64,000 bases of DNA, from assembly GCA_964346905.1 (NCBI GenBank), contig CAYFXH010000001.1, forward strand, positions 1,280-65,279, given 5' to 3'. Made by a program: the position numbers and the translations under genes. Origin of the DNA: an uncultured Desulfobacteraceae bacterium (GTDB lineage: Bacteria; Desulfobacterota; Syntrophobacteria; BM002). The notes beneath the pieces are model-generated. The model saw only the letters and a program-made list of their open reading frames with translations, searched no databases and had not been told where the DNA came from. This document shows, piece after piece, positions 27,084 to 58,700 of the stretch. Within the stretch, counting starts at the first letter, position 1, and every line of letters starts with the position of its first letter.

Positions 27084-27088
27084 TCGCC

Positions 27089-28480
27089 TCACCTCCTTCT
27101 TATCAGTGTTCTCGCGAACGCCCTCCATAGATCAAACCGCATCGGCAAGCTAATAGCTGTTCCGAAAATATTCTTGAAGCGTTCGTTTCCCGTGAACATG
27201 TTCCACAAGACTGAACTCAATCTTTTGCGATCCTTAGGATCGCTCTGTTCTTCCCGAACAATTTGTAGCATCCATCTCGTAAGCAGTCCGTAATTCTTGT
27301 ACAGATCGGCAAGGAAATATAGGTAAGTCCCGAAATAGTTGTCCACAATAATGTTTTTGTAGACTGGATAGTAATGTTCCTGAAAGTCCTGCTTGCTCAC
27401 CCCGTGAAGAACCGCCGTGTTTGCTGCAGCTTTTCCCATGATGTAGGCGGCTCCAAGACCATCTTTAAAAAGGCGCGTCGACCCGGCATCACCACACATG
27501 ACCACCCTGTCCGTAAACGGTATTTTGGGGGCTTTGATATTCATCTTAGGCAGACAGCGACAACCAAACTTGTAGCTCACTGACTTCGGCAGGACTTCTT
27601 TCACCACCGGGTAGTCAAGAAAGTCTGTTATTGTATTGACATTCAAATCATGCCCCAGAATGCATAGGGTGAGATATGTGACTTTGGGAACTATGGCCGC
27701 GAATTTCAGATTCTTTATCGGCAGGAGAAAGATGTGAATGGAATTGCCAAAATGCTCAGTGATAATTTCTTCGTCGAAGCTCAATTCAGCAATAGCCGCC
27801 TTGATAGTCCGAGGCTCTTCATACCCGAATCCTATATCCTGAAAAATGCCCGACTTGCCACTGTTTACCCCCACGGCCCCGACAACAAGGTCAGCTTGCT
27901 CTTTCCTCCCGCCCTGGGAAAACAAAATCGGCTTGCCATTCTTGTATTCAATTCCTTGAATCTTGAGAGGGATGTGTGCTGCCCCCTCCTTTACAGCCTG
28001 ACCCAGAAGAAAATCATCGAAACTCTCCTTGTCTTCCCCGATAATACCCTTTGGTCCGCCTCCCCTATAAACTGCGGCTATGGTGTTTTCAAAAGATGGA
28101 GTAGCAATAGAAACGCTTCCCTTCGTGGTATGGAGTTGATAGGAATTAATACCCTTCCACACGACCGAATCCGGCAAGTTGATCCCCTCAACTGCAAGCG
28201 TCTGGACGAGCAGTTCGGATATTATGCCTGCGCATTTATTACAGCCCGCAGGGCCATCCTTGGTGAAGTTCTTGGGATCATAGATGGTAATATTGAGTTT
28301 CTTGTCGAGCATCTTGGCCAGTTTCAGGGCAAAGATACTGAAGAAGGACCCCGTCGGCCCGCCCCCTACAACAGCAATCCTCGAGCCGTCCTCCAGGGCA
28401 TAGGGACCACTTTCGGCTAGAGCCTGCTTGGCCACGTAAGCTGCAAAATCAGATTTTGAGTGATCCTGGCGCGATAACAT
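27089..28480 (-). CDS. FAD-dependent oxidoreductase (geranylgeranyl-reductase-like flavoprotein family)
   Basis: Dinucleotide-binding motif RIAVVGGGPTGSFFS near N-terminus; ORF track extends to 28555 (GTG), start uncertain. Confidence 0.55.
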   Translation of the reverse strand: MLSRQDHSKSDFAAYVAKQALAESGPYALEDGSRIAVVGGGPTGSFFSIFALKLAKMLDKKLNITIYDPKNFTKDGPAGCNKCAGIISELLVQTLAVEGINLPDSVVWKGINSYQLHTTKGSVSIATPSFENTIAAVYRGGGPKGIIGEDKESFDDFLLGQAVKEGAAHIPLKIQGIEYKNGKPILFSQGGRKEQADLVVGAVGVNSGKSGIFQDIGFGYEEPRTIKAAIAELSFDEEIITEHFGNSIHIFLLPIKNLKFAAIVPKVTYLTLCILGHDLNVNTITDFLDYPVVKEVLPKSVSYKFGCRCLPKMNIKAPKIPFTDRVVMCGDAGSTRLFKDGLGAAYIMGKAAANTAVLHGVSKQDFQEHYYPVYKNIIVDNYFGTYLYFLADLYKNYGLLTRWMLQIVREEQSDPKDRKRLSSVLWNMFTGNERFKNIFGTAISLPMRFDLWRAFARTLIRRR

Positions 28481-28749
28481 AAACTCGGTTAAAATACGAT
28501 GAAGACACAAAAATTTTATAATAGGATAGAAAACTCTCGGTTTGAAGTTTACCACAATGTGCCATGTCCGTCAAGCTAGATGCATGCCAGGAGTTACCCT
28601 GAAAGTAACCGGTTTATTGCAAGCTCGTCCCTAAATTTTTACAATAAAATTTGCCCATAAACAAAGAATATGATCGCGCGAAGAATTACTTTTCACAATT
28701 TTTTGCTGATATAGCTAGGATGCTTTTGAGCTTGAGTGGAGGTGTTCGA

Positions 28750-35498: not shown

Positions 35499-35927
35499 AT
35501 GAATGAAAAAACTGATATCATGAAAATATTTGATTACGACACGAATTTTCAAGCCATAATGAGGTATTTGCTGGAGAATGCAATGGAACACTCTTTCGAC
35601 GCGATTATGATAACAAAGGCAGAACCCGGCTACCCGGTTATTTATATCAACGATGCCTTTACCGTACTCACTGGCTACAGCGCCGAGGAGATAATCGGTA
35701 AGTCACCAGCTGTTTTGCAAGGGCCCAAGACGGATCGTGCTGTATTGGATCGACTGGAGCGAGAATTATCAGAGGGTCGGCTTTTCCACGGTGAAGCGAT
35801 TAATTATCGCAAAGATGGTTCTGAATTTGTGATGGAGTGGAAGATCGTCCCCATCAAAAACAAAAGAGAAGAAACCTCCCATTATCTTGCCATTCAACGA
35901 GACGTTACCAAGTTGAGAAATCATTAG
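35499..35927 (+). CDS. Stand-alone PAS domain protein, LOV-like but lacking the adduct-forming cysteine
   Basis: 142 aa; DAIMITKAEPGYPVIYINDAFTVLTGYSAEEIIGKSPAVLQGPKTD aligns to the LOV core (GKNCRFLQGPETD), with the Cys position occupied by Pro. Confidence 0.6.
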   Translation: MNEKTDIMKIFDYDTNFQAIMRYLLENAMEHSFDAIMITKAEPGYPVIYINDAFTVLTGYSAEEIIGKSPAVLQGPKTDRAVLDRLERELSEGRLFHGEAINYRKDGSEFVMEWKIVPIKNKREETSHYLAIQRDVTKLRNH

Positions 35928-35935
35928 GTAAATGC

Positions 35936-37042
35936 ATGGAAGACGAACTGAGACAAGTTTTAAGTTACTATGACCTGGGTGAACCCAGAAGCATTCAACG
36001 GGTCGAGTGTGGCTTTGTCAACGACAACTGGGTGCTTGAAACAACCCGTGGACAATACTTTTTGAAGCGCCGCCATACTGACTTGCGAAATCCAGAAGTT
36101 ATCTGCTTCCAGCATGACCTCATGCAGCATCTCAGGCAGGCGGAATTCCCGGCTCCAGCCATTCTGCCCACCATAAGCGGAGAAACTTTTTTGGTGCATG
36201 CTGGCGAGTTCTACGAGATTCAGGAGTATATCAACGGGGCACCATGCGAACACTTTTCTCCACCGCATATACACGTAGCCGCTCTGATGCTTGGCCACTA
36301 CCATGCTTGCGTTCGGGACTTCGTCCCCAGACCCCTGTGTGATTTTGGGGATCTCTACAGTCCTGCTATCCTCATAAACAACCTGACCAGACTATCGGAG
36401 GCTTGGGCCCTCCATCGGGACCCTACCCTGAGGCAAATTGTCCATCAGTTGGAGACCCAGGCGGAAGAACTAGCGGCTCTTTTCACCGAGCATGGAGAGC
36501 TCCCCCATCTGGTAATCCACGGTGACTATCACGCGGGCAACCTTCTGTTCCAAGGTGACCGTATCATTGGAGTGGTCGACTATGACAAGTCTTGCTACCA
36601 GCCTCGGGTTGTAGAGTTGGCCGAAGCCTTGATTTACTTTGCCTCGACCCGGCCAGGTCATCTAAAGCACCTGGTGTATCTCGGTTTTCTTGAGTGGGGT
36701 ACGTTCATGACATTCATGTACCATTATGGTTGTGGACTCAGCTCCTTTGCCAAGGAACCTGTCCAGTACGACCACCGTCCGGAGGCAGATCGGCCCAGCG
36801 ATCTAGCCTGTCAGGCTGGGGACGTTTTTCTCAAGGCAAACGAAGTGTACGCCCTGCCGGACTACATCCGTTGCATCTGGCTTTCGGTCTCGCTCCAACG
36901 GCTGTTGGAAAAAACCTCCCGCTCACCAGTAGCTCTGGAAGCCCTGCGAGAGGTACTGGCACTGGGGCAATGGGCCGCCACCAATAGGGAACGGATTATC
37001 CACTCCGCGCTAGAAAAAATATCTGACGTGGCAGAGCGTTAG
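35936..37042 (+). CDS. Phosphotransferase-family (APH/choline-kinase-like) protein
   Basis: Start Met34 of ORF 35837..37042, 8 nt after the PAS stop. Brenner motif VIHGDYHAGNLLF and DYD catalytic/metal motif. Confidence 0.7.
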   Translation: MEDELRQVLSYYDLGEPRSIQRVECGFVNDNWVLETTRGQYFLKRRHTDLRNPEVICFQHDLMQHLRQAEFPAPAILPTISGETFLVHAGEFYEIQEYINGAPCEHFSPPHIHVAALMLGHYHACVRDFVPRPLCDFGDLYSPAILINNLTRLSEAWALHRDPTLRQIVHQLETQAEELAALFTEHGELPHLVIHGDYHAGNLLFQGDRIIGVVDYDKSCYQPRVVELAEALIYFASTRPGHLKHLVYLGFLEWGTFMTFMYHYGCGLSSFAKEPVQYDHRPEADRPSDLACQAGDVFLKANEVYALPDYIRCIWLSVSLQRLLEKTSRSPVALEALREVLALGQWAATNRERIIHSALEKISDVAER

Positions 37043-37091: not shown

Positions 37092-37691
37092 ATGATAAAA
37101 GCTATCATTTTCGATTTCGGCCGGGTCATCTCGACCCAAAAGCCGCCATCCCTCTTCAGCGGCTATGAAAAGGATTTGGGACTCCCCCCCGGAACGCTCA
37201 ACCCTATTATGTTCGCTAGCCGGGCCTGGCAAGATACCTTGATTGGCCACAAGACCATTGAAGAGTTCTGGGACGAAATTGGGCCCAAGCTTGGACTGAA
37301 TACTCCCGAGGAAATTGAGGAGTTCCGCCGTCGGTACCGGGCTGATGAAGCGGTTAACGAGGGTGTGCTGAATCTACTCCATCGGCTGCACGGCCATTAC
37401 AAGCTGGCGGTACTCTCCAATGCACCGCCTGGCCTGGGCCAATGGCTGGGCGACTGGGGGATGCTCCATCTGTTCGATGTGCTGTTCTGCTCCGGAGACG
37501 AAGGCGTGGTAAAGCCAGAGCCGGCTGCTTTTACTATCACCCTAGAACGACTCGGCGTGGAGCCCAATGAAGCAGTGTTCATTGACGATACACTGGAACA
37601 CGTGGAGGCAGCCAGGACACTGGGGCTGCACGGAATACTGTTCACCACCGCAGAAGCTCTGGAGGCGGAATTAGATGGCTTACTTGCTTGA
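37092..37691 (+). CDS. HAD-superfamily hydrolase (subfamily IA)
   Basis: 199 aa; motif I IKAIIFDFGRV (DxD-type), SNAPP motif II, GDE...D motif IV region. Confidence 0.75.
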   Translation: MIKAIIFDFGRVISTQKPPSLFSGYEKDLGLPPGTLNPIMFASRAWQDTLIGHKTIEEFWDEIGPKLGLNTPEEIEEFRRRYRADEAVNEGVLNLLHRLHGHYKLAVLSNAPPGLGQWLGDWGMLHLFDVLFCSGDEGVVKPEPAAFTITLERLGVEPNEAVFIDDTLEHVEAARTLGLHGILFTTAEALEAELDGLLA

Positions 37692-37712: not shown

Positions 37713-38363
37713 ATGGCGACCGTTGTGAGCAATGACCACATTAAAATTGATCGGTTAGAATTGGGGCCGTTCGGCACTAATGGGTACATCTTAACCTGCC
37801 AAAAGACACAAGAGAGTGTGGTGATTGACGCCCCCGGCCAAGTCGACAGAGTCCTGGAAGCGCTGGAGGATACACACCCCCAATACATCCTAATTACTCA
37901 TGACCATTTTGATCATGTGGGTGGTCTTTCCCGGTTGAAATCAGCCTTGAACGTTCCCGTCGCTGCCCACCCTGCAGATGGTGACGGGCTTCCCCTACCT
38001 GCGGATATTCTCCTACATGACGGTGAGGTACTATCCTTTGGAGCCAGAGAGCTTACGGTGTTGCACACACCGGGCCACACTCTGGGAAGCATATGCTTGC
38101 TGACCGGGAATTACTTGATTGCGGGGGATACGTTATTTCCGGGAGGTCCGGGTAAAACCCAATCACCCGCAGACTTCCGGCAGATTATTGAATCCATAAC
38201 CCAGAAGATTTTCACATTGCCGGACAACACCCACGTGTATCCCGGACACGGGGAAGCAACAACGGTCAAGGAGGCAAAAAAACAGTACGAGGTTTTCTCA
38301 ACCCGACCGCACGATCCGGATCTTTGCGGGGATGTGGTTTGGGATAAATCGCAGAGCGCATAG
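37713..38363 (+). CDS. MBL-fold metallo-hydrolase
   Basis: 216 aa; ITHDHFDHVGG (HxHxDH) and downstream His/Asp ligands. Confidence 0.8.
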   Translation: MATVVSNDHIKIDRLELGPFGTNGYILTCQKTQESVVIDAPGQVDRVLEALEDTHPQYILITHDHFDHVGGLSRLKSALNVPVAAHPADGDGLPLPADILLHDGEVLSFGARELTVLHTPGHTLGSICLLTGNYLIAGDTLFPGGPGKTQSPADFRQIIESITQKIFTLPDNTHVYPGHGEATTVKEAKKQYEVFSTRPHDPDLCGDVVWDKSQSA

Positions 38364-38499: not shown

Positions 38500-39195
38500 T
38501 TACCAACCTATTACCACTCGGTGAAAACCTTCCGCCAGTTCAAAATCCTCCCCTTCAGCCATCTCCCTGCACCGCTCTCTCAGCCAATCTTCAGGGTCCG
38601 GATTGGGGAATCCCTGTACCTGGCTCTGGTGGCAACGTAGGGCCGCAATTTTAAGATCAAAGGTATCGGTGATGTCCGAGCGATAGTTAATGTCTTCCGC
38701 CGCCCAGAATAAGATCTCATCTACATTGTGAGGCTCCAAACCTTCCTCTAACAAATCAGGGTAGGCAAGATGATCCCGAGAGTACGGGAAAACTGCATCG
38801 AGAGTAACCTGCCCGGCAATGCGATGGTCGCGATGCCAGAGGTAACGACGGTAGGGATCCGAGGTCACCACGATCCTGGGCTGGTACATGCGTATAAAGC
38901 GAACGATCTGCTTACGAAATTCCGGCGTGTCTTCCAACTCCTGATCCGGGTATCCCAGGAATATTACTTCTCGGACCCCAAGGATCTTGGCCGCAGCCTG
39001 TTGCTCCTTTTTTCTGATTTCGGCCAATTGTTCAGGTTTGAGGCTCCGGTCGCTGGTTCCCTTGTCGCCATTGGTGCAGACAACGTAGACAACCTGCTTT
39101 CCTTCTCTGGTCCAGCGCGCTACTGTTCCTGCCACCCCGAATTCGGCGTCATCCGGATGAGCTGTTACCACCAGTACGTCCGTTGCTTTCGTCAC
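38500..39195 (-). CDS. PIG-L/LmbE-family N-acetylglucosaminyl deacetylase (MshB/BshB-like)
   Basis: Start chosen at GTG (Val71 of ORF 38500..39405) with AGGAGG RBS 6 nt upstream, giving 232 aa; signature VLVVTAHPDDAEFGVAGT and downstream His/Asp. Confidence 0.75.
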   Translation of the reverse strand: MTKATDVLVVTAHPDDAEFGVAGTVARWTREGKQVVYVVCTNGDKGTSDRSLKPEQLAEIRKKEQQAAAKILGVREVIFLGYPDQELEDTPEFRKQIVRFIRMYQPRIVVTSDPYRRYLWHRDHRIAGQVTLDAVFPYSRDHLAYPDLLEEGLEPHNVDEILFWAAEDINYRSDITDTFDLKIAALRCHQSQVQGFPNPDPEDWLRERCREMAEGEDFELAEGFHRVVIGW

Positions 39196-39250
39196 AACGA
39201 ACCTCCTAAAAAGTCGAGACTCGAGTAGTTCAATGAAATACCGAATGATG

Positions 39251-40459
39251 TTACCTGAGTATGGCTGTGTATTCTTCCAGCATAGCGGACGCCACATTTG
39301 CCCAGCTAAATTGGAGGACCGACGCGCGAATTGCTTCAGCGGATAGTCCGTTGGAGTTCGAGATAAAAGCTTCGATACCGTTTGCCAGTAAACGGGGAGA
39401 ACCATTGGTCACCAGATGTCCTGTCTCACCTTGGCGGAGGATGCTCTCCATAGCCCCCACCTTCGTTGCCACCACCGGTGTGCCAGAGGCGAGCGATTCC
39501 AAGGCCACCAGCCCAAAGCTCTCGTAGTAAGAGGGCACAACCAAGACATCTGCGGCATTGTAGTACGGCGGCAGGTTATCCTGTTCGATCCTTCCCACAA
39601 AGGTCACGGAATCCTGAATACCCAACTTCCAGGATAATCTTTGGAGGTTTTGCGACTCCGGTGTATGATGGCCATCGCCACCGACAATTACCAGTCGAAG
39701 CCTTTGATGATTCAGAAGGCGGGCCACGGCCTCAAGCAATCGGTCTATTCCCTTCAATGGCGCAAATCTGCCCACGAACAACACAATCGACTCATCCTCC
39801 GCAAAACCCAACTGCTCTCGCGCCCTCGCTTTGTCCCATGGGCGGAAAAGATCCAGGTTGACACCACACGGTACAACGCCAATTGTCGCAGAGGACGCCC
39901 CATAGTGTTGCATTAGATGGTCTCTTTCTCTGTGGGTGGCGACGAGAATGCGGTTACAATTATGTGCCAAATGCTGTTCGGTGGCTGTACGCAGTTCGGG
40001 TTCTTTCTCCGCACCAACTGTACTGTTCTTTACCGCGCCAACAGTATGGAACATGAAAAGATGAGGGACTTCCCAGCGTTCATGGGCCCATTTCCCCACC
40101 CGACCGGAGAGCCAGTAGTTACTATGTACAAGGTCATAGTCCAACGACTCGTATGTTCTAAATCTTTCCAGCTCCCGGAAAAAATCAGGCAGATAGGGAT
40201 AAAGTGCCAATTTGTTCATATCACCGTTGTTCCCGGCTTTTAGATGAATGAGTCGGACGTTCTCACATAGTTCAACTCTCTGAGTATCAGCTGCATTACT
40301 GAGACGCGTATAAATGTCGACCAAATGGCCGCGGTTTCCCAGCTCCCGGGCAAGCTCACGGACATAGACACTCATGCCTCCGGTGTCTTTTGTCCCTAAT
40401 TCTCCTAGCGGACTTGAATGAACGCTCAACATTGCAATTCTTAACTGTTCTGCTTCCAC
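39251..40459 (-). CDS. GT4 glycosyltransferase of the MshA/BshA (N-acetylglucosaminyl-transferase) family
   Basis: 402 aa; IAMLSVHSSPLGELGTKDTGGMSVYV, DLVHSNYWLSG, HTVGAVKNS, PSYYESFGLVALESLASGTPVVA align block-for-block with Corynebacterium MshA (from memory). Confidence 0.75.
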   Translation of the reverse strand: MEAEQLRIAMLSVHSSPLGELGTKDTGGMSVYVRELARELGNRGHLVDIYTRLSNAADTQRVELCENVRLIHLKAGNNGDMNKLALYPYLPDFFRELERFRTYESLDYDLVHSNYWLSGRVGKWAHERWEVPHLFMFHTVGAVKNSTVGAEKEPELRTATEQHLAHNCNRILVATHRERDHLMQHYGASSATIGVVPCGVNLDLFRPWDKARAREQLGFAEDESIVLFVGRFAPLKGIDRLLEAVARLLNHQRLRLVIVGGDGHHTPESQNLQRLSWKLGIQDSVTFVGRIEQDNLPPYYNAADVLVVPSYYESFGLVALESLASGTPVVATKVGAMESILRQGETGHLVTNGSPRLLANGIEAFISNSNGLSAEAIRASVLQFSWANVASAMLEEYTAILR

Positions 40460-40503
40460 GTGCGCTACCTCTCGATTCAGTGCTTGTTTACCGTTCAGAT
40501 TGT

Positions 40504-41481
40504 TCAGAGTTTAATCTGGCATCTATACAAGGTAACAGGTTTACCTCCCAACCGATGTTTGTAATCCTCTGCGCCTTTGAGAAAATCGTACCTCTCTTTT
40601 CCTCTCTGAATGCTTTCTTGAATGGTGAATACCTTACTGAGCAGACCCACGTTCAGCGAACTGAATCTGCCGTCATACCCATTGTTGTAAAGATATATCG
40701 TCGAATTATAATCAAAACACATCACCGCGGCTGCAGGTGTCCCGTCAAGTTCGAGGATAAACAGTTGCAATAGCTTGAGCGTTGCCATTGTCTCGGCCAG
40801 TGACCGAAAAAAAGAAGCCATCTGACTAGTCATAAAAGCTGCCTTATCGGCTCGACTCAATCCAAACAGCGCCAAAAAGGTGTCCATTTCCTCCAGGACT
40901 TCTCTTACATCCTCCACAACCCGATATCTGATGTCTGCAGCCTCATCTAATCTCCTGAGTTTTCGTCTCACTTCGTGCCGCTGTTTTCCGGTCAACATGT
41001 GCAAGAATTCATCCCAGCTTGCCGGCAACTCTAACTCCAGGGTAACATCCTCGGGATCGCAAAAAACCTCGCACTCCAGCGCTTTGGCCACGTTGACAAA
41101 ATCGGTGAGCACTTTAGAGTCGGCACGTACGGAGTTCAGATCCAGGTGAGTGATACCCTGCTCCCTTAAATGATTGATGAGAATCTCAGAAAACTCCCCT
41201 ACCCTCCCAGGGGTGACGATGAAATCTTGGTAATCGCAAACATCAGGATCGCCCATGAAGCGGGCCTCTCTTCCTTCCAGCAAAAACGGCGCGATACCGA
41301 TCACTTCTTCCCCGTCTTTCACCGCGTAGAGGGAGGGAGCCAATTCAGCACTGAATACGTTCCACCATACCTCCAGCCAGCCGGGCAAAACAAAGAGACA
41401 ATCCCACTCCAGGACATATCCCGGATCTAGCCAGTAAGAGGCGAGATTTTCAAAGGTCTCTTCAGTTACGGTATATGCCAT
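40504..41481 (-). CDS. FemAB/CelD-like tandem-GNAT acyltransferase (Acetyltransf_6-like)
   Basis: Start Met27 of ORF 40504..41559 (GAAGGTGA RBS). ~326 aa with two GNAT-like halves; architecture typical of aminoacyl-tRNA-dependent transferases (FemX/FemAB) and CelD; no precise motif verified. Confidence 0.5.
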   Translation of the reverse strand: MAYTVTEETFENLASYWLDPGYVLEWDCLFVLPGWLEVWWNVFSAELAPSLYAVKDGEEVIGIAPFLLEGREARFMGDPDVCDYQDFIVTPGRVGEFSEILINHLREQGITHLDLNSVRADSKVLTDFVNVAKALECEVFCDPEDVTLELELPASWDEFLHMLTGKQRHEVRRKLRRLDEAADIRYRVVEDVREVLEEMDTFLALFGLSRADKAAFMTSQMASFFRSLAETMATLKLLQLFILELDGTPAAAVMCFDYNSTIYLYNNGYDGRFSSLNVGLLSKVFTIQESIQRGKERYDFLKGAEDYKHRLGGKPVTLYRCQIKL

Positions 41482-41574
41482 GGTCACCTTCGGAGTATTG
41501 GTACTGTAACGATTGCGGATTGCGGAATTTGGTGATTTCCCTGCTTTGCAATCCTTCATGCTGAAATCTGTAAT

Positions 41575-42006
41575 CTACAAGCTGACCTTGCCGCCGCTTC
41601 TAAAATCTCCACCACCCGTACCAAGTCTTCCAAGGGAGCTGCTATTGGCTCTCCCGTCAACAAATGATCGGCTAGGTTCCGATGAAAAAGATAATGCTCT
41701 CGTTTGGGCAATGCCAGTTTTTGGGTGATAAGTAGTACCTACTGGGATCGCATCATGGGAATGCCAGTAGCCACAGGGGTGCGCAAAACTGCCCACGAAG
41801 GTCTCCATGTAAAAGAGGTCGCCAATCAGCCCATGAGCGAGTGCTTGTTTAATCGCCAAGTAGTCCACGTCCCACCGCCGGTTTTGGTGGCAGCTCAGAT
41901 GCACCCGCTGTTTTTTGGCCATCTCCACCATGGCGGCTGTTTCCTTTTGGCTCAATGCCAGGGGCTTTTCACAGACCACATGCTTCCCTGCTGCCATCAT
42001 TTGCAA
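41575..42006 (-). pseudogene. Gfo/Idh/MocA-family oxidoreductase remnant (N-terminal Rossmann region and C-terminal domain missing)
   Basis: ORF begins at AAGKHVVCEKPLAL, the motif that normally lies ~90 aa into Gfo/Idh/MocA proteins. Only 75 nt separate it from the upstream gene. C-terminal 40 aa are low-complexity, suggesting frameshift. Confidence 0.5.
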
Positions 42007-42080
42007 AGATAAGTTTGCATGGGAGTTCGGTGGGGTGGCTAATCATTTTCCTTTAACCCTCACAGTTCCTGGTTTCTTGC

Positions 42081-43334
42081 CTATGACTTCAGTCGCCACT
42101 GCGCGCCATCTCCAGTATCCTCAACTATTATGTCTGCTCGCTGGAGGCTGTCGCGGATGACGTCGGCTTCTTGCCATTGTTTCTTTTGTCGGAACTCCTG
42201 GCGCAACTTGAGTAGCTCTTCCACGAGAGGGGCAAGACAATCAGCCCTATTTTTTGGAGAAGCCTCAAGTCTCATTCCTAAAATGACTATCAAATCTCGA
42301 AAAATTTCTTTAGCTTGGGAAATGAATTCCTCGTTTTCATGATCCTGCTTGGCTCTCCAGATAACCCGATCAAGCTCCAAAAGAGCGTTGGTGGCTTCTT
42401 TCGGTTCGTCTTTTTCGAGGCCGAGCCGAAAGGTGTTTTCGATTGCATGAATGGTATCCCAGAAGGACTCTGCATCAACATCAGAGGTAGGTTTGAAAAT
42501 CGCTTGCTTTGGGGTTGTCGGTTTCCACTCCTTACCCATCTCTCCTCCACGGAGAACATCAAGAGAAAAACGGTCACCCTTTTCAAAGACCAACTCAGCT
42601 CCCCGACAACGTAGGGTCGCAGTGCCGAGTCCCTTAATGAGAGCTTCTTCTTTTTCAAAATCAATGAGGCAGGCCGTATGTTCATCCAAGCCAAAAATGG
42701 ATACATCCTTGGGCAAGAGGGACTCGAGCTTGCGAAAGCGCGATTCACCCATGAAACAGAAACGGGTGTCGTGAGTCCCACCTTCAGCGTTGTTCCAATG
42801 GGGAATCACCACCAGATTGAAGCCGAAGTGGTGGAGTATATTCATCCCCTCCACCCAATGCAGGTCTTCGCCCACCTTGTAAATCTCATAGACTGGGAGA
42901 GTGAAGCGTCCCAGGGTCAGGGCGGCAGCACTGGCAGCCACTAGGCAACCGCCGGATTCGATCTGCTTTATCAAGATTTCAGGTACGGGTGTTTGCTGCC
43001 ACTGGCGAAGGGCATACGTCGGACTTCCTGGGCCAATCAGAATAAAGTCGGCCTCCCGCAGCGTATGAAAGGCCTGCTCGGCTTCGTATGGTGTGATCCT
43101 CTCGTTTGACTGAAACGAGGCTGTTGACATGGGTTGTTGAACATGGATACGAAAATAATCCAAGGCTCTCTTGGATATCTGATCAACATTAAGCTGAAAG
43201 CCAGCCGGCGTATCGAGAAATACGGCTCGGGGATCTTGAGCAAATCCCGCCAGTAACTCCTTGTGAACTTCAACCATGGTTGCAGTGAGTTCACCTGAGC
43301 CCATGAGGGCGATAATTCCTTTCCTTGATGACAC
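42081..43334 (-). CDS. Fusion protein: peptidase S51/cyanophycinase-like (class I GATase-like) N-terminal domain + C-terminal tRNA-anticodon-binding region of cysteinyl-tRNA synthetase
   Basis: 417 aa. N-terminal IALMGSGE...FLDTPAGF...ILIGPGSPTYALR...GGCLVAASAAALTLG resembles the S51 fold. C-terminal ...LRQEFRQKKQWQEADVIRDSLQRADIIVEDTGDGAQWRLKS aligns with E. coli CysRS C-terminus ...[39 protein letters not shown] (from memory). No HIGH or KMSKS motifs present. Confidence 0.6.
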   Translation of the reverse strand: MSSRKGIIALMGSGELTATMVEVHKELLAGFAQDPRAVFLDTPAGFQLNVDQISKRALDYFRIHVQQPMSTASFQSNERITPYEAEQAFHTLREADFILIGPGSPTYALRQWQQTPVPEILIKQIESGGCLVAASAAALTLGRFTLPVYEIYKVGEDLHWVEGMNILHHFGFNLVVIPHWNNAEGGTHDTRFCFMGESRFRKLESLLPKDVSIFGLDEHTACLIDFEKEEALIKGLGTATLRCRGAELVFEKGDRFSLDVLRGGEMGKEWKPTTPKQAIFKPTSDVDAESFWDTIHAIENTFRLGLEKDEPKEATNALLELDRVIWRAKQDHENEEFISQAKEIFRDLIVILGMRLEASPKNRADCLAPLVEELLKLRQEFRQKKQWQEADVIRDSLQRADIIVEDTGDGAQWRLKS

Positions 43335-46921: not shown

Positions 46922-47698
46922 ATGTGGCAGACAGAGATGAAGAAGATGGTTGGGTTGCTTGTGACGGTACTGTGGCTGGTCTTTTTTGCTCACCAGACGG
47001 CAACCGCTCACTTCGGTATGATCATTCCTTCAGATGAGATGGTTATGAGGGGGGAAAGCCCGAATGTCGCCGTGCAGCTCATGTTCTGGCACCCCTTCGA
47101 AGGTCAGGGAATGGAACTGGCGAAGCCCGCACAATTTGGCGTGGTGGCAAACGGCAGCAAGCAGGACTTGTTACATACGCTCAGTTCTAGAAAGATCAAA
47201 GAACATACCACCTGGCAGACTACCTATCGAATCAGGCGGCCCGGACTTTATATTTTTTACATGGAGCCGCAGCCTTACTTGGAGGCTGCGGAAAATTCTT
47301 ACATCATTCATTACACCAAGACCGTAGTTGCAGCTTATGGTAAGGACGAAGGCTGGGATGAACCCATCGGCCTGAAAACCGAAATCGTCCCCCTAAGCAG
47401 ACCTTTTGGCCTTTACGTGACCAATGTGTTTCAAGGGGTGGTTATGCGCAATGGGAAACCCGTGGCCGGTGTCGAGGTGGAAGTCGAGTACTTCAATGTG
47501 ACTGGTACGTATTCCGCCCCTACGGACTACATGGTGACCCAGACCACTAGGACCGACCCGAACGGGGTTTTTACTTACGCGGTCCCCAAGGCTGGCTGGT
47601 GGGGTTTCGCCGCCATCACCACTGATGATCACCAAATCAACGGTAAAGATGTGGAAATTGGCGCTGTGCTATGGGTCAAGTTCCATCTGATGCAATAG
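46922..47698 (+). CDS. DUF4198-family periplasmic component of Ni/Co ECF transporter (NikK-like)
   Basis: 258 aa, signal peptide, adjacent and upstream of cbiM in same orientation; start may be Met6. Confidence 0.55.
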
Positions 47699-47707
47699 GA
47701 AAGAGCC

Positions 47708-48322
47708 ATGCATATTTCTGAAGGAATACTGTCAGCACCCGTGCTGATTACCGGTGCAGCCCTCACAGCTGCCGGTGTTGCCGTGGGGCTAAGGAAGATG
47801 GACAATGAGAATATTCCCCGGGTTGCCGTCTTGACCTCGGCGTTTTTCGTCGCTTCACTGATACGTGTACCTCTGGGCCCTTCCGCTGTGCATCTGGTTT
47901 TAAACGGCCTTCTCGGGTTGGTACTTGGCTGGGCCGCATTTCCGGCTATTCTTGTGGGCGTGGCGCTCCAAGCCCTCCTTTTTCAGTTTGGCGGGTTGAC
48001 TACTCTGGGTATAAATACCTTCATCATGGCCATGCCCGCTATCCTCTGCTATTACTTCTTCGCCAGAACCATTATCCAGAAACAATCAGGGGTGGCCATG
48101 GCCCTTGCCTTTGCCAGCGGCTTTGTTGCAATCTTTCTGAGTGCTCTCCTGTTGGCCCTATCTCTAAGATTTACGGGAGAATCGTTTCTCGAGGCAGCCA
48201 AGCTTCTCGTGGTAGCACACCTTCCCGTGATGGTTCTCGAGGGTGCTGTTGCCGCCTTCTGTTTGGCGTTCCTCATGAAGGTCAAACCAGATCTCCTGGG
48301 AGCACCTCATGCCACCGGGTAG
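47708..48322 (+). CDS. cbiM: ECF transporter substrate-specific component CbiM/NikM
   Basis: N-terminal MHISEGIL (hallmark MHIxEG), 5-6 TM helices. Confidence 0.85.
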   Translation: MHISEGILSAPVLITGAALTAAGVAVGLRKMDNENIPRVAVLTSAFFVASLIRVPLGPSAVHLVLNGLLGLVLGWAAFPAILVGVALQALLFQFGGLTTLGINTFIMAMPAILCYYFFARTIIQKQSGVAMALAFASGFVAIFLSALLLALSLRFTGESFLEAAKLLVVAHLPVMVLEGAVAAFCLAFLMKVKPDLLGAPHATG

Positions 48323-48971
48323 GAAACGGAGTCTTTTTCAGAAGGCGGCCATTGCCAGCTTCGTTGGAATCTTGCTCGCCTCGACGCTGATGGCCACCAG
48401 TCTCCTGGCCCACAAGGTGAACGTGTTTGCCTGGGTTGAGGGTGACATAATCTTCGTGGAGGGCTATTTCCCCGGTGGCAAAAACGCGCAGAATTCACTG
48501 GTGGAAGTATTCAACCAGGCTGGAGCCAAACTTTTGGAAGGAAGAACCAACGAAAAGGGCGAGTTCTCCTTCAAGACTCCAGAAAAGACCGATCTTAAGA
48601 TCGTGCTCAGCGCCGGGATGGAGCACAGGAACGACTTCACTGTGTTTGCCAGCGACTTTGCAGAAACAGCGCCATCGCCGGCCGCACCCTTCCGAGAACT
48701 CCAGGAGAGCGAGACACTCTCCGGTGAGGTTGATGAGGACATGCGGCGGCTGGAAGCACTAATCAACCGAACGTTGGACCGCAAGCTTACCCCGGTAATC
48801 AAACTCATCCGCGACTCCAGGAGAGAGGGCCCGACTTTTTCTGAGATCGTTGGAGGTATTGGTTATATTTTCGGACTCGTTGGGGTGGCGCTTTATTTTA
48901 GTAATAGAAAAAAGAAAGAAGGCGGTCAGCGGTCAGCGGTCAGCGGTCAGCAAGATACGGACGGGCAGTAA
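48309..48971 (+). CDS. CbiN/NikL-like accessory membrane protein with periplasmic beta-sandwich-like domain
   Basis: N-terminal TM, HKVNVFAWVEGDIIFVEGYF...EKGEFSFKTPEKTDLKIVL, C-terminal TM; position between cbiM and cbiQ. Confidence 0.45.
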   Translation: MPPGRKRSLFQKAAIASFVGILLASTLMATSLLAHKVNVFAWVEGDIIFVEGYFPGGKNAQNSLVEVFNQAGAKLLEGRTNEKGEFSFKTPEKTDLKIVLSAGMEHRNDFTVFASDFAETAPSPAAPFRELQESETLSGEVDEDMRRLEALINRTLDRKLTPVIKLIRDSRREGPTFSEIVGGIGYIFGLVGVALYFSNRKKKEGGQRSAVSGQQDTDGQ

Positions 48972-49052
48972 TCATTTCCAAGTGCTGCTGTACGAATTAT
49001 CACCTGTTGCGTTTTGATTCTTGCTTATAGCTGACGGCTGATAGCTGATAGC
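48923..49052. repeat. (cggtcag)x4 tandem at the 3 end of 48309..48971 and imperfect inverted copy gctgacggctgatagctgatagc 60 nt downstream
   Basis: Seen directly; encodes GGQRSAVSGQQ tail; arms could pair as a 3 hairpin. Confidence 0.5.
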
Positions 49053-49061
49053 TCAAAAGAA

Positions 49062-49820
49062 ATGCACATAGATAACTTCGCCAGCGGAGATTCCCTTCTC
49101 CATCGTCTCGATCCCCGAGTGAAAATAGTCGTCGCTACGCTGTTTTCTGTGGTGGTTGCCCTCGCAGATAACTACCTTTGCCTGGTGACAGCTGTTGGCG
49201 TAGCTGTCACTTTGCTGCTTGTGGCCCGGCTCTCTTGGAAACAGGTCGCTCTCCGTTTGCTCGCGGTAAACACCTTTATTTTCTTCCTTTGGCTTTTTTT
49301 GCCTTTCACCTACGGAGGTGAAGAACTCTTCAGTATCGGTCCCTTGCACGCTACACGTGAAGGGATTGGTTACGCCCTGCTCATCACGGTAAAGTCGAAT
49401 ACCATTGTGCTCGGACTGATCGCGCTGCTCGCCACCAGTCCCATTATCACCCTTGGCCACGCTATGAGCCATCTTCATGTTCCCGACAAATTGATTCATC
49501 TTTTCTTCTTTACCATCCGGTATCTCCAGGTACTCCATTTGGAGTACGAGCGGTTGCGTGATGCCATGAGGATTCGCGGATTCAAACCTCGCTCCAACCT
49601 GCACACCTACAAAAGCCTAGCTTATCTCATTGGCATGCTCTTGACCAAGAGCTTTGATCGGGCTGAACGCATTAGAAAAGCAATGCTCTGTCGAGGATTT
49701 CACGGAAAATATTATCTCATTAGTCATTTTAAGCTGAAGAGAGGCGACATGGCCATGTTTGTCTTCATGATGCTGATCATAAGTGGGATGGTGGCGTTGC
49801 AATGGCTAACCCCGAAGTAA
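49062..49820 (+). CDS. cbiQ: ECF transporter transmembrane (T) component CbiQ
   Basis: 252 aa multi-TM; conserved ARG-containing C-terminal loop (AMRIRGF...RIRKAMLCRGF). Confidence 0.8.
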   Translation: MHIDNFASGDSLLHRLDPRVKIVVATLFSVVVALADNYLCLVTAVGVAVTLLLVARLSWKQVALRLLAVNTFIFFLWLFLPFTYGGEELFSIGPLHATREGIGYALLITVKSNTIVLGLIALLATSPIITLGHAMSHLHVPDKLIHLFFFTIRYLQVLHLEYERLRDAMRIRGFKPRSNLHTYKSLAYLIGMLLTKSFDRAERIRKAMLCRGFHGKYYLISHFKLKRGDMAMFVFMMLIISGMVALQWLTPK

Positions 49821-50482
49821 TCATAAACGTGAACCGGATCTCCTTTGCGTACCATGGGAACCAAGCCAAACGGCCGGTTCTGGATGATCTCAATTTCCAG
49901 CTAATCCGCGGGGAACGGGTGGGTTTGATCGGCGCCAATGGCAGTGGTAAGACCACGCTTTTTCACCTGATCATGGGGCTCCTGCCACCGACCCGGGGAG
50001 ATATTGAGGTGTTCGGCGAGAAGCGAAGACAGGAAAAAGATTTCAAAGAAGTCAGAGAGAGGATCGGTCTGCTCTTTCAGGATGCCGATGATCAACTTTT
50101 CTGCCCCACGGTGGCCGAAGACGTGGCCTTCGGTCCGCTGAACCTGGGAAAGACCCAAGAGGAAGCAGGAGCTATCACTCAGGATATCCTAACGAGGCTC
50201 GGGCTGGAAGGTTTTCAGAAGCGTTTAACCTATAAGCTTTCAGGAGGGGAGAAACGGCTGGTTGCTTTGGCCACTGTCCTGGCCATGCAACCAGAAGTTC
50301 TCATCCTTGATGAACCCAGTACCGGCCTCGATGAAGATACGATGAAACTACTCGTCCATATACTCAACAACTCTGACCTTACCTACCTCATCGCCTCCCA
50401 CAATACCGATTTTCTGACACAGACCACTGATGTTATCTACCGGCTGGCAAATGGGAAGATAACCAGAACAACTGAGAGCTAA
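49802..50482 (+). CDS. cbiO: ECF transporter ATP-binding (A) component CbiO
   Basis: Walker A GANGSGKTT, signature LSGGEKRL, Walker B ILILDEP. Confidence 0.85.
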   Translation: MANPEVIINVNRISFAYHGNQAKRPVLDDLNFQLIRGERVGLIGANGSGKTTLFHLIMGLLPPTRGDIEVFGEKRRQEKDFKEVRERIGLLFQDADDQLFCPTVAEDVAFGPLNLGKTQEEAGAITQDILTRLGLEGFQKRLTYKLSGGEKRLVALATVLAMQPEVLILDEPSTGLDEDTMKLLVHILNNSDLTYLIASHNTDFLTQTTDVIYRLANGKITRTTES

Positions 50483-54290: not shown

Positions 54291-55202
54291 TTACGGTCGC
54301 CCGAGCACATCTAACTGATGGGCGATATAAAAAAGCCGCCCTTCTTCAATGTGGCGGTGGCGTGTTGTCAGCCATTGTTCCAGTTGGTGGACCTCAAGCT
54401 CGGGACACCCCCTCAGTCCATCCTCCATGAGGTGCAAGATATGGTGCAGGAAATATGCTTCATCTGCTGGATAGGGGGGATAGACCACCCAGTCCGAACT
54501 GTGGGCGGCCAGGATTGCGGTCCCCTGCAGCCAGAGGGTTTCAAGCAGAATTCGCCCCGTCTGGCTATGTCCCGCAGGCCGCCCCTGGAGCACCCGCTCG
54601 TTCATGCACCGGTGGTAGCAAGCCTCCACTCTGGCATCAAAATCTGGATCCACAGTTGGCCGCAAAATGGTGCCGCCGTCGAAAACCAGGGTGAAGTAGA
54701 AGAGTCCTCCTGCATGCAGACAGGAGAGGAGGGTGGGCAGGGTGGTATCCAGATCTACCAGGTCCATGAAGGCGTGTGCAATGAGGAGATCCCAGGACCT
54801 CCCCGGCTGCTTTGCCAGGTGGAAGATATCCGTGGCGATGAATTCCAGTGAGATCTCTTGCCTGTCCCCTGCTAGGATGAGTCGGTCCTGTTGTGCTCGC
54901 TTTGCCTGCCAGCCGCGGGACTCGGCCCAGATTGGCAAGCGCACGGCTGCCCTGGCCAAGAGAGAAGAGTCTACGTCCACGGCTGTGTAGTTTAAATCAC
55001 GATGGAGGCCCCATTCCACCAACCGTTCTACCATGGTCCCAACTCCTGCGCCCACCTCCAGCACCTGGAGGGGTTGGTTGGGGGAAAAACTCTTCAATTC
55101 CTCGAGAAGTCGCTCCCAGCACCGTCGGCTCAGGGCGCGGTCATCCACAGTGCGCTTGGCCTCCAGATAGCGGCTGAAACTATAGTGTTCGGGTTGTGCC
55201 AT
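54291..55202 (-). CDS. Class I SAM-dependent methyltransferase
   Basis: Motif I VLEVGAGVGTM; last gene of the minus-strand operon 60401->54291. Confidence 0.7.
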   Translation of the reverse strand: MAQPEHYSFSRYLEAKRTVDDRALSRRCWERLLEELKSFSPNQPLQVLEVGAGVGTMVERLVEWGLHRDLNYTAVDVDSSLLARAAVRLPIWAESRGWQAKRAQQDRLILAGDRQEISLEFIATDIFHLAKQPGRSWDLLIAHAFMDLVDLDTTLPTLLSCLHAGGLFYFTLVFDGGTILRPTVDPDFDARVEACYHRCMNERVLQGRPAGHSQTGRILLETLWLQGTAILAAHSSDWVVYPPYPADEAYFLHHILHLMEDGLRGCPELEVHQLEQWLTTRHRHIEEGRLFYIAHQLDVLGRP

Positions 55203-55204
55203 GT

Positions 55205-56673: not shown

Positions 56674-56783
56674 TCCATCTCCTCCGCGTTACTCATTGTG
56701 GCGTGGTACAGAATGGGGACTCTTGCAGTAATTTCCAACGGACAATGACTGCGAGCCCACACTGTTGCGTCTACACCACCATG

Positions 56784-58549: not shown

Positions 58550-58700
58550 AACCCCGGGGTCAACCTGGCGGTTTGCTGCCAGGCGTGATCAGCCGTGATT
58601 CTTCGAATACCTGATATTTTCCCTTGCCAGATCGATTCCATGAGAGCGATTGCTGGCGACAACACTTCATTAATTCAGAAAAACAACCACAGTGTCAAGT

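Follow-up and report, generated by a model that had tools for sequence, protein, structure and literature searches.

A conserved four-gene operon of sulfate-reducer-type bacteria points to a possible tRNA-dependent pathway, so far undescribed, for making a cysteine–glucosamine compound. In the 64-kb stretch of DNA that we analysed (the window), the locus consists of four intact minus-strand genes and one decayed remnant, with two possible accessory genes alongside:

42081–43334, minus strand: FUS, 417 aa, first in the operon; S51-type serine hydrolase/acyltransferase domain plus CysRS anticodon-arm module
42540–43334, minus strand: S51 (PepE/cyanophycinase-like) domain of FUS, residues 1–265; triad Ser135-His179-Glu218
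42090–42449, minus strand: CysRS-like part of FUS, residues 296–415; helical bundle plus alpha/beta anticodon-binding domain
41580–42042, minus strand: pseudogene, remnant of a ThuA–Gfo/Idh/MocA fusion oxidoreductase
40504–41481, minus strand: tandem-GNAT protein (Acetyltransf_6), 325 aa; FemX/MprF/Sbb17 type of fold
39251–40459, minus strand: MshA-like GT4 retaining glycosyltransferase; putative substrates UDP-GlcNAc and a phosphorylated polyol acceptor
38500–39195, minus strand: LmbE/PIG-L family deacetylase, 231 aa; putative GlcNAc-conjugate de-N-acetylase
37713–38363, plus strand: MBL-fold hydrolase, possible accessory gene, nearest to glyoxalase II (hydroxyacyl-thiol hydrolase); convergent on LmbE
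37092–37691, plus strand: HAD-IA phosphatase, possible accessory gene (Pfam Hydrolase/HAD_2, NCBIfam HAD-IA)

The original prediction counted five co-directional genes here; their strand and coordinates were correct, and the set is now four genes and a pseudogene. The gene arrangement is far beyond chance, as among 47 species-representative loci with at least 7.5 kb of sequence downstream of FUS, GNAT, GT4 and LmbE genes together follow it in 26. Taken singly, GNAT follows in 36 loci and LmbE in 32, while a GT4 match is found in 36, two of them unrelated GT4s, leaving 34 of the operon type. The order FUS, optional ThuA-Gfo and Gfo oxidoreductases, GNAT, GT4, LmbE is kept on a single strand in species representatives of both Desulfobacterota and Nitrospirota, with FUS identities of 56–76%. 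The gene set survives rearrangement in four loci (L020, L033, L041 and L065), is also present in a lineage whose FUS is only 47% identical (L088), and where the oxidoreductases are missing FUS and GNAT abut or overlap (L023, L036, L028, L066, L083). In a few loci FUS occurs alone or with the oxidoreductases only. Conservation of the gene neighbourhood of the S51–CysRS fusion, a check proposed at the outset, is strong.

The similarity of the FUS C-terminus to CysRS, proposed earlier, is genuine and spans the whole anticodon-arm module. Following a low-confidence linker of about 22 residues (267–288), FUS 296–415 aligns with E. coli CysRS 336–460 at 97.5% probability (E 5.3e-12, hhalign with the family profile); PF23493 CysS_C is matched at E 3.7e-10 and the CysRS–tRNACys complex 1u0b is among the Foldseek structure matches. 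Within this alignment FUS R382, W387, D391 and R394 pair with CysRS R427, W432, D436 and R439, the anticodon-interaction residues of 1U0B, mutation of which makes CysRS recognise the CUA anticodon in place of GCA (PMC13449415). R382, D391 and R394 are kept in 107–109 of 112 FUS representatives, with W, F or Y at position 387, and the same pattern of three retained contact residues and an aromatic fourth extends over about 2000 FUS clusters, down to 34% overall identity.

The N-terminal domain of FUS scores 22.8 bits against Peptidase_S51, slightly short of the Pfam gathering score of 23.9, and its assignment was confirmed by fold, with Foldseek matching 6nqc (E 1.8e-13, TMt 0.80) as well as PepE and cyanophycinase; the AF2 model of FUS has a pLDDT of 78. 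FUS S135, H179 and E218 pair with S120, H157 and E192 of E. coli PepE (hhalign) and are kept in 111, 112 and 108 of 112 diverse representatives, respectively. As the catalytic triad is intact and conserved family-wide, FUS is probably an enzyme in its own right, with (aminoacyl-)tRNACys as its substrate, and the domain first described as cyanophycinase-like is no passive appendage. A word-indexed search returned more than 8000 FUS homologues, and those at E<=1e-30 form 461 clusters at 50% identity; we found no literature on the family.

The other protein of the presumed tRNA-linked chemistry, the GNAT, lies in an open reading frame at 40504–41559, with its start most likely at 41481; the resulting 325-aa protein is identical to database entry P0390. 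It matches Acetyltransf_6 at 101 bits, with FemAB_like under its cutoff, and by structure it belongs among the aminoacyl-tRNA-dependent transferases, alongside the amino-sugar-acylating Sbb17/Sba18, in keeping with the family first suggested for it. Acetyl-CoA GNATs score at most 13.4 against it and MshD 12.5. Orf11/Sba18 provide an earlier case in which the amine of an amino sugar is acylated in a tRNA-dependent reaction (PMC12945691).

Based on these observations, we tentatively propose that the operon makes a mycothiol-like Cys–GlcN–polyol, drawing its cysteine from Cys-tRNACys and dispensing with activation by an MshC or BshC ligase. The product would belong with small aminoacyl-glucosamine conjugates such as mycothiol and bacillithiol, Cys–GlcN–(inositol-like polyol) being its likeliest form, and the substrates and the division of labour between the proteins would be as follows. 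The MshA-like GT4 would move GlcNAc from UDP-GlcNAc onto a phosphorylated polyol, for example inositol phosphate, as its homology and the residues conserved at acceptor-site positions suggest. A phosphatase, for which the neighbouring HAD is a candidate, would then take off the phosphate, and LmbE, judging by its family, would remove the N-acetyl group to free the GlcN amine. This amine would be acylated from an aminoacyl-tRNA, a step for which both FUS and GNAT appear to be built. FUS could hold tRNACys at its GCA anticodon through the CysRS-derived module, with the Ser-His-Glu S51 domain on a flexible tether. In the arrangement that we prefer, Ser135 would attack the Cys-tRNA ester to give a cysteinyl-enzyme and pass the cysteine to the GlcN amine, making FUS an ATP-independent functional analogue of MshC/BshC, and the FemX/Sbb17-type GNAT would add a second (amino)acyl group, the role of MshD. 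The reverse split, in which GNAT transfers cysteine and FUS selects or proofreads the tRNA, is nearly as likely.

FUS homologues also occur with none of the genes for GT4, LmbE and GNAT close by, both in Actinobacteria (L085, L086), which are expected to possess MshC already, and in other lineages (L092, L093, L095, L096). FUS activity is therefore not tied exclusively to the operon pathway, which, together with the gene count and the probably active S51 domain, modifies an original interpretation whose anatomical claims otherwise stand, on firmer ground than before. This distribution lends some weight to an unlikely alternative, in which FUS is a free-standing tRNACys-specific deacylase that removes a wrong, damaged or surplus aminoacyl group in trans-editing or quality control, and GNAT alone aminoacylates the GlcN conjugate. 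The amino acid need not then be cysteine, nor the aminoacyl-GlcN-polyol a thiol, and FUS would sit in the operon solely since both proteins draw on the aminoacyl-tRNA pool. Known stand-alone editing factors likewise occur solitary, S51 enzymes are hydrolases, and GNAT has the complete fold of self-sufficient aminoacyl-tRNA transferases; moreover, the retention of FUS motifs from Actinobacteria to Desulfobacterota is more readily explained by a universal substrate such as the tRNA 3' end than by a metabolite confined to one lineage. However, one would not expect a pure housekeeping editor to keep the first place in an operon with GT4 and LmbE, often abutting or overlapping GNAT, in a linkage that spans two phyla and survives rearrangements. 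CysRS is a highly specific enzyme, and bacteria are not known to contain a misacylated tRNACys that needs editing.

The best NCBIfam model for the GT4, predicted to be of MshA/BshA type, is MshA (TIGR03449), matched over its full length at 366.8 bits (cutoff 462.5), the next family scoring 120 bits, and it matches C. glutamicum MshA at E 2.4e-75 (structures 3c48 and 3c4q, E about 1e-75). Positions paired with MshA K78, Y110, H133, T134 and R154 are kept in 43–52 of 52 orthologues; we take these to be acceptor-site and phosphate-binding positions, reportedly described by Vetting et al. in 2008. LmbE, likewise a deacetylase as foreseen, matches PF02585 (PIG-L) at 127 bits and scores 109 bits against BshB1, 91 against BshB2, 71 against Mca and 59 against MshB, all under the equivalog cutoffs; it is a BshB/MshB-like enzyme. 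The AHPDD motif and the His/Asp residues that follow it do not vary among 36 orthologues, and the LmbE start is most likely the GTG at 39195 rather than 39405, because AGGAGG precedes this codon and the resulting 231 aa agree with homologues. As both enzymes score under their equivalog cutoffs, their substrates may differ from those of MshA and BshB.

GT4 and PIG-L are, by family name, also the logic of GPI-anchor initiation, and the operon might instead modify a cell-envelope glycolipid or polysaccharide, not a soluble cofactor: a GPI-like GlcNAc-to-GlcN phosphatidylinositol or phosphatidylglycerol lipid that is then aminoacylated, in parallel with PIG-A/PIG-L followed by MprF-like aminoacylation, or a CelD-type exopolysaccharide function. 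Weaker GT4 matches to GlcNAc-phosphatidylglycerol synthase and EPS glycosyltransferases, and the JGI name 'CelD/BcsL family' for GNAT, point the same way. We consider this improbable, given the 367-bit MshA score against at most 120 bits for other families, the residues kept at positions aligned with MshA phosphate-binding sites, and the lack of any recurrent flippase, polymerase, export or lipid-synthesis gene beside the operon.

A little less probable again is a pathway with no tRNA dependence, in which FUS would be a PepE/cyanophycinase-like peptidase of the ordinary kind, using its C-terminal helical tail for dimerisation or regulation, GNAT would be an acyl-CoA acyltransferase, and the product would be an N-acylated glucosamine glycoside. 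Source annotations read 'peptidase E' or 'cyanophycinase-like exopeptidase' for FUS and 'GNAT family N-acetyltransferase' for GNAT, no dedicated tRNACys gene accompanies the operon, and GNAT weakly matches BspF, named a crotonyl transferase by NCBIfam, given which an acyl-CoA donor is conceivable. Set against this are the significant homology of FUS to the CysRS anticodon module and the contact residues kept throughout its clusters.

The stretch 41575–42006 was rejected as a fifth gene, being a remnant of a 557-aa ThuA–Gfo/Idh/MocA gene. By tblastn, 42042–41728 corresponds to residues 274–378 of the intact L001 protein (80% identity) and 41732–41580, in another frame, to residues 496–546 (84%); only profile positions 80–117 of Pfam GFO_IDH_MocA are matched, and the ancestral operon's second oxidoreductase gene has been lost here. 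The accessory oxidoreductase module has decayed in this genome. The ThuA–Gfo/Idh/MocA and Gfo pair, resembling inositol dehydrogenases and glycoside 3-dehydrogenases, is present in about 57% of loci, as might suit a catabolic cluster that takes up and dismantles a GlcNAc-containing glycoside (LmbE deacetylating, Gfo/ThuA oxidising, S51 acting as an amidase), but this is very improbable, as the oxidoreductases are optional and have decayed here beside four intact genes, retaining GT4 synthases and aminoacyl-tRNA-type transferases serve in biosynthesis, and the surroundings show no recurrent glycoside hydrolase or sugar transporter.

Among flanking genes, the MBL-fold hydrolase (TIGR03413 GSH_gloB, 99 bits; cutoff 200.8) is the immediate neighbour of LmbE in 14 related loci, among them L065 with its inverted GNAT-GT4-LmbE block, and its tie to the operon is circumstantial; the recurrence of this glyoxalase-II-like thiolester hydrolase was counted in favour of the pathway. 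The HAD-IA phosphatase recurs in 12 loci, at varying positions in the retrieved flanks of up to 10 kb, making it a weak candidate for the dephosphorylation step, as mere shared ancestry may explain the recurrence.

The proposed cysteine–glucosamine pathway resembles that of mycothiol (MshA, MshA2, MshB, MshC and MshD; Actinobacteria) in its GT4, nearest to MshA, followed by an LmbE deacetylase, and in a four-gene, four-step logic with one CysRS-derived component and one tandem GNAT. However, MshC is paralogous to the catalytic domain of CysRS and works with ATP and free cysteine, whereas FUS has the other half of CysRS, its anticodon-arm module, joined to an S51 hydrolase domain, and lacks the Rossmann/HIGH/KMSKS part; moreover, the operon genes are clustered and their hosts are Desulfobacterota and Nitrospirota. 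Bacillithiol synthesis (BshA, BshB, BshC) likewise runs from GT4 to LmbE to addition of cysteine to GlcN, and the operon's LmbE scores best against BshB1/BshB2, but its GT4 is much nearer to MshA than to BshA (367 vs 110 bits), and two tRNA-type proteins replace BshC. Neither the operon nor those unidentified window ORFs of at least 400 aa that were scanned contain an MshC- or BshC-type domain; the predicted absence holds to that extent.

Sba18/Sbb17/Orf11, of streptothricin-type glycylthricin synthesis, and FemX/FemA show no sequence similarity to GNAT in a PDB profile search, and differ from it in Pfam family (Acetyltransf_6, not FemAB, for GNAT) and in working without a separate anticodon-binding partner. 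With CysRS itself, FUS shares the homologous module and its anticodon-contact residues, but it has no catalytic domain and cannot activate cysteine with ATP. Cyclodipeptide synthases offer a precedent, in that a catalytic serine takes the aminoacyl group from aminoacyl-tRNA as a covalent intermediate before transfer, although their fold is unrelated (class-I aaRS-like) and they do not recognise the anticodon. Peptidase E and cyanophycinase (MEROPS S51) share the fold and Ser-His-Glu triad positions of FUS, which differs in its extra 150-residue CysRS-derived tail, its sub-gathering Pfam score and the invariant motifs PVYEIYKVG and NAEGGTHDTRFC, missing from the aligned PepE sequence. The PepE acyl-enzyme carries a free alpha-amino acid, the same chemistry as that proposed for the FUS cysteinyl-enzyme.

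Positions 38500-43334 of the minus strand hold four intact genes and one remnant. The intact genes are termed FUS (a peptidase S51 domain fused to an anticodon-arm module of cysteinyl-tRNA synthetase, CysRS), GNAT (a tandem-GNAT protein), GT4 (an MshA-like glycosyltransferase) and LmbE (a PIG-L deacetylase). Clustering of all flanking ORFs at related loci added only two further recurrent neighbours, which are the plus-strand genes listed last here.

42081-43334, minus strand: FUS, 417 aa, with Pfam PF23493 and a sub-threshold Peptidase_S51 match
41580-42042, minus strand: remnant of a ThuA–Gfo/Idh/MocA gene that is intact, with a 557-aa product, in a related genome
40504-41559, minus strand: GNAT ORF, Acetyltransf_6 at 101 bits, FemAB_like below cutoff
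39251-40459, minus strand: GT4, matching MshA (TIGR03449) over its full length at 366.8 bits
38500-39405, minus strand: LmbE ORF, PIG-L/LmbE
37713-38363, plus strand: MBL-fold hydrolase, nearest to glyoxalase II (GloB) with a sub-cutoff score of 99 bits, and convergent on LmbE
37092-37691, plus strand: HAD-IA phosphatase, present in 12 loci when flanks of up to 10 kb are taken

Among GTDB species representatives, 80 FUS loci were recovered at 56-76% identity; every one belongs to Desulfobacterota or Nitrospirota, with Thermodesulfovibrionia and Dissulfurispiraceae among the Nitrospirota. Six complete genomes (CP070692.1, CP070843.1, CP070689.1, CP070746.1, CP070697.1 and CP070694.1) are among those with the operon. 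Searching these with the window proteins (tblastn) gave a recurring order on one strand of FUS, an optional pair of oxidoreductase genes (ThuA-Gfo, then Gfo), GNAT, GT4 and LmbE. Neighbours were counted in the 47 loci whose sequence extends 7.5 kb or more past FUS on its downstream side: GNAT is present in 36, a GT4 match in 36, LmbE in 32 and the oxidoreductases in 27. The GT4 is of the operon type in 34 loci, the matches in L059 and L060 being unrelated GT4s that lie upstream on the other strand. GNAT, GT4 and LmbE all occur together in 26 of the 47, so that the association of the fusion gene with GT4 and LmbE, which the original prediction proposed to follow across genomes, is indeed conserved. 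The gene set is kept through rearrangement, with GNAT-GT4 upstream of FUS in L020, L041 and L058, LmbE upstream in L033 and the GNAT-GT4-LmbE block inverted in L065, and it is also found in another lineage at 47% FUS identity (L088).

What had been taken for a fifth gene, the 143-aa ORF at 41575-42006, proved to be the wreck of a ThuA–Gfo/Idh/MocA fusion gene in two fragments in different frames. Positions 42042-41728 correspond to residues 274-378 of the intact protein (80% identity) and positions 41732-41580, in a different frame, to residues 496-546 (84% identity); the second (Gfo) oxidoreductase gene is wholly missing from the window operon. The remnant is the mark of an accessory module lost recently here and kept in about 57% of related operons, and ten loci carry FUS-GNAT-GT4-LmbE without the oxidoreductases, the state that the window reached by deletion. 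As the pair is missing from many loci and decayed in the window, it is clearly dispensable. It resembles inositol 2-dehydrogenases and glycoside 3-dehydrogenases (below cutoffs) and may modify the polyol or sugar. Where it is missing, the FUS stop and GNAT start abut or overlap (L023, L036, L028, L066 and L083).

The two halves of FUS are both recognizable. Pfam places PF23493 (CysS_C) at residues 367-414 (E 3.7e-10, 40.2 bits against a cutoff of 23), residues 9-225 score 22.8 bits with PF03575 (Peptidase_S51), below the gathering score of 23.9, and the NCBIfam cysS model aligns only through its positions 362-464 of 466, to residues 313-414. In the AF2 model (pLDDT 78), residues 1-265 fold as an alpha/beta domain and residues 291-399 as five helices, with a disordered linker at 267-288 between them and a beta-hairpin at the end. 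Foldseek gives the N-domain an S51 fold (E 1.8e-13 to 1e-8, TMt 0.67-0.80), the best-placed S51 structure being the acI-B1 actinobacterial peptidase 6nqc (E 1.8e-13, TMt 0.80), with peptidase E and cyanophycinase also among the matches; the tail matches the CysRS–tRNACys complex 1u0b. With a profile of 43 diverse family members, Ser135, His179 and Glu218 align on the E. coli PepE triad (S120, H157, E192), and residues 296-415 align with E. coli CysRS 336-460 (hhalign, probability 97.5%, E 5.3e-12), the matched part being the helical bundle and alpha/beta anticodon-binding domain. Residue by residue, R382, W387, D391 and R394 correspond to CysRS R427, W432, D436 and R439, the anticodon-interaction sites described from structure 1U0B in a 2026 paper, in which R427 hydrogen-bonds O6 of G34 and mutation of the four residues re-targets CysRS from GCA to CUA (PMC13449415).

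These features are strongly retained. Among 112 full-length representatives, reaching down to 34% identity, Ser135, His179 and Glu218 are kept in 111, 112 and 108 respectively and R382, D391 and R394 in 107-109, with W, F or Y at position 387 in the counted majority. Because both the triad and these arginine and aspartate residues are kept, and the CysRS residues align, FUS looks like a predicted active serine enzyme tethered to a putative reader of the tRNACys anticodon arm. An intact, conserved S51 triad makes it probable that FUS is a catalyst, with the aminoacyl ester of tRNACys as its predicted substrate. The similarity to CysRS claimed for the tail therefore survives scrutiny, given the PF23493 match above cutoff, the hhalign result and the conserved anticodon-contact residues. 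The NCBI name "CysS/YqeB C-terminal domain" raised the possibility of a tail that is not tRNA-related; no CysS_C motif is visible by eye in the C-terminus of E. coli YqeB, and the name did not for this reason weaken the CysRS link. The motifs PVYEIYKVG and NAEGGTHDTRFC are invariant family-wide, and the aligned PepE sequence lacks any equivalent of them; H24, H188, C193 and H219 are also conserved and are possible ligands of a metal.

The sole strong curated match of GT4, to MshA TIGR03449, extends over the full length of the protein and lies under the cutoff of 462.5 bits, with the next-best family at 120 bits and BshA at 110, which points to a sister clade of MshA rather than an equivalog. 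The alignment of GT4 with C. glutamicum MshA covers both proteins from end to end (E 2.4e-75); second among structures comes the cyanobacterial protein Tll1590 (6kih), which we take to be a sucrose-phosphate synthase, and the BshA structures are far weaker. GT4 K83, Y115, H138, T139 and R157, conserved in 43-52 of 52 orthologues, align with MshA K78, Y110, H133, T134 and R154, reported to be the inositol-phosphate acceptor site by Vetting et al. (2008), and MshA N25 is replaced by Ser. Together, the MshA alignment and the conservation of the aligned residues suggest a phosphorylated polyol or sugar as acceptor. LmbE most plausibly begins at the GTG at 39195, six bases after AGGAGG, which gives 231 aa as in its homologues. 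It matches PF02585 (PIG-L) at 126.7 bits, and its metal-binding AHPDD motif (H14, P15, D16, D17) and downstream H/D are invariant in all 36 orthologues. Its best curated matches are BshB1 (109 bits) and BshB2 (91), ahead of Mca (71) and MshB (59), all of them below the equivalog cutoffs of 182-277.

For GNAT the likely start is the ATG at 41481, after AAGGTG, giving a protein of 325 aa with an identical entry in the protein collection. Its model (pLDDT 93.7) has the double-GNAT fold of the aminoacyl-tRNA-dependent transferases FemXAB, MprF and Sbb17, and Foldseek gives the best TM-scores to Sba18 and Sbb17. Acetyl-CoA tandem GNATs are not its closest structural class and follow after a gap (scores <=13.4), mycothiol synthase MshD among them scoring 12.5 with only 173 residues aligned. 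By sequence it falls outside the Fem families, scoring 24.7 bits with PF04339 (FemAB_like) against a cutoff of 27 and giving no Pfam match to PF02388 (FemAB); a search of PDB sequences with a profile built from the GNAT alignment returned nothing, and the fold comparison alone was informative. Its C-terminal stretch YDFLKGxExYKxRLGG contains an invariant Y307-K308. In FemX-type enzymes the C-terminal catalytic pair is an aromatic residue and a Lys (FemX F304-K305, DhpH-C F328-K329), and Orf11/Sba18-type enzymes acylate the amine of an amino sugar from Gly-tRNA (2026 review, PMC12945691).

We infer all of the functional assignments in the operon, and the reading that accounts for all four intact genes most simply would be a mycothiol-like pathway. 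In this pathway, GlcNAc would be transferred to a phosphorylated polyol, the product would be dephosphorylated, possibly by the HAD-IA phosphatase, and then de-N-acetylated, and the freed GlcN amine would be acylated from an aminoacyl-tRNA. Cysteine is the suggested acyl group because FUS carries the tRNACys reader. In our preferred assignment, a cysteinyl-Ser135 intermediate on FUS would be resolved by the GlcN amine, and the FemX-type GNAT would add a second (amino)acyl group in the place of MshD; the disordered linker of about 22 residues could perhaps give the S51 domain enough reach to meet the acceptor end with the anticodon still held by the tail. We favor this assignment because it maps one gene to one step and because L017 and L018 keep FUS and GT4 (L018 also LmbE) with no GNAT. 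The reverse assignment, in which GNAT would transfer cysteine and FUS would give tRNA selectivity or proofreading, is nearly as good, in view of the Sbb17 precedent and the abutting or overlapping FUS and GNAT genes.

On the preferred assignment, FUS would found a new class of enzyme, an ATP-independent, anticodon-guided transferase that moves cysteine from Cys-tRNACys through a serine acyl-enzyme to a glucosamine conjugate. With the FemX-type transferase it would make a previously unknown cysteine-glucosamine thiol cofactor in Desulfobacterota and Nitrospirota at the expense of the translation pool, and its stand-alone homologues in Actinobacteria and elsewhere would feed Cys-GlcN thiol synthesis by a second route, dependent on tRNA. 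We advance this proposal tentatively, as one that may well prove wrong.

The main rival draws on the breadth of the FUS family. A word-indexed search returned more than 8000 homologues, the closest (70-76% identical) from Syntrophobacterales/Deltaproteobacteria MAGs, and an exhaustive search of 1.8 billion cluster representatives found 1980 family members at E<=1e-3, of which 461 reach E<=1e-30, the 461 being clusters at 50% identity and a lower bound on family size. The family splits into a PAGFQLNVDQ type, to which the window protein belongs, and a PYGFQENADE type, whose members with named close relatives are actinobacterial. Actinobacterial homologues (Euzebyales, Ilumatobacteraceae, Streptosporangiaceae) stand alone, as do those in four other lineages examined; L085, L086, L092, L093, L095 and L096, from Actinobacteria and others, have a FUS homologue without GT4, LmbE or GNAT neighbours. 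In L090 and L091 (316-2356) a FUS from a distant lineage, 34% identical to the window protein, is followed 2 bases on by a 259-aa stand-alone Peptidase_S51 gene. Such solitary homologues, and with them the one case of a separate S51 gene directly after FUS, fit a self-contained activity such as that of a tRNACys-specific deacylase. The genes of mycothiol synthesis are scattered in Actinobacteria, and stand-alone actinobacterial members are for this reason compatible with the transferase model as well. We regard the deacylase as unlikely, if a serious competitor.

An envelope glycolipid, built by GPI-like GT4/PIG-L logic with an MprF-like GNAT, is an explanation that we consider improbable. An ordinary peptidase accompanied by an acetyltransferase seems slightly more improbable still. 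Least credible is a catabolic cluster, for which one might look to the dispensable oxidoreductase pair.

The recurrent neighbours bear on the nature of the product. Glyoxalase II hydrolyses thiolesters of low-molecular-weight thiols, and the MBL-fold hydrolase, which adjoins LmbE in 14 related loci including the inverted L065, could be a thiolesterase for the putative new thiol; a GloB-like neighbour of LmbE is circumstantial support for a thiol product. The HAD-IA phosphatase is a weak candidate for the dephosphorylation step. Beyond it, an APH/homoserine-kinase-like phosphotransferase ORF (35837-37042, plus strand) overlaps a small PAS-domain gene (35499-35927). No associated tRNA, and no dedicated tRNACys gene with the operon, turned up when the window and 60 loci were scanned for tRNAs; an Rfam scan of the window gave no RNA family, and a promoter/terminator scan was uninformative, with fewer matches than in shuffled sequence. 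A "GT4-conflict" defence lead for the operon was dropped, PADLOC having given no defence-system match.

Elsewhere in the window, a second small-molecule cluster (54291-60401, minus strand) encodes a methyltransferase, another GT4, sharing 31% identity over 169 residues with that of the operon, a 6-pyruvoyl-tetrahydropterin synthase, a Zn-dehydrogenase-like protein, a RibD C-terminal-domain reductase and a sulfatase-family protein, and looks like a pterin or deazapurine glycoside-type pathway. A 488-aa ORF (27089-28555, minus strand) with no Pfam match at E<=1e-4 adjoins a cNMP-binding/GAF regulator gene (26211-27128). A DUF4198 protein (46922-47698, plus strand, 209 bits) is the first of a co-directional ORF run (46922-50482), and the ORFs after it look, by eye, like CbiM-type and ABC-type metal-uptake components.

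As cofactors, low-molecular-weight thiols have a central place in redox chemistry and detoxification. Surveys of anaerobic bacteria have reported no glutathione and several still-unidentified thiols (commentary, PMC6336425). An operon reusing MshA/LmbE chemistry, with the cysteine ligase replaced by tRNA-handling proteins, would be a sign of a new cofactor in anaerobes that are abundant worldwide. If true, our proposal would also supply a primary-metabolism example of aminoacyl-tRNA-dependent small-molecule synthesis, for which the reviewed examples are cell-wall and antibiotic pathways (PMC12945691), and a function for a large uncharacterised family of hydrolases joined to an aminoacyl-tRNA synthetase anticodon reader (at least 461 clusters).

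The searchable literature held no account of the S51–CysRS-tail protein or of the operon, nothing specific on tRNA-dependent thiol synthesis or the thiols of sulfate reducers, and nothing on thiols of Desulfobacterota or Nitrospirota; the FUS family goes unmentioned in PMC8762117, which deals with cysteine-encoding systems. The absence of MshC and BshC, as originally predicted, holds for the operon and the scanned window ORFs of at least 400 aa, which contain no CysRS-type catalytic domain or BshC domain, FUS matching only the end of cysS. The proposed pathway is like mycothiol and bacillithiol synthesis in its first steps, with parts that fall outside the equivalog families of MshA, MshB/BshB and MshD, and its acylation module resembles the tRNA-dependent enzymes of natural-product and cell-wall synthesis. 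Within such a pathway, FUS may represent a new enzyme class.
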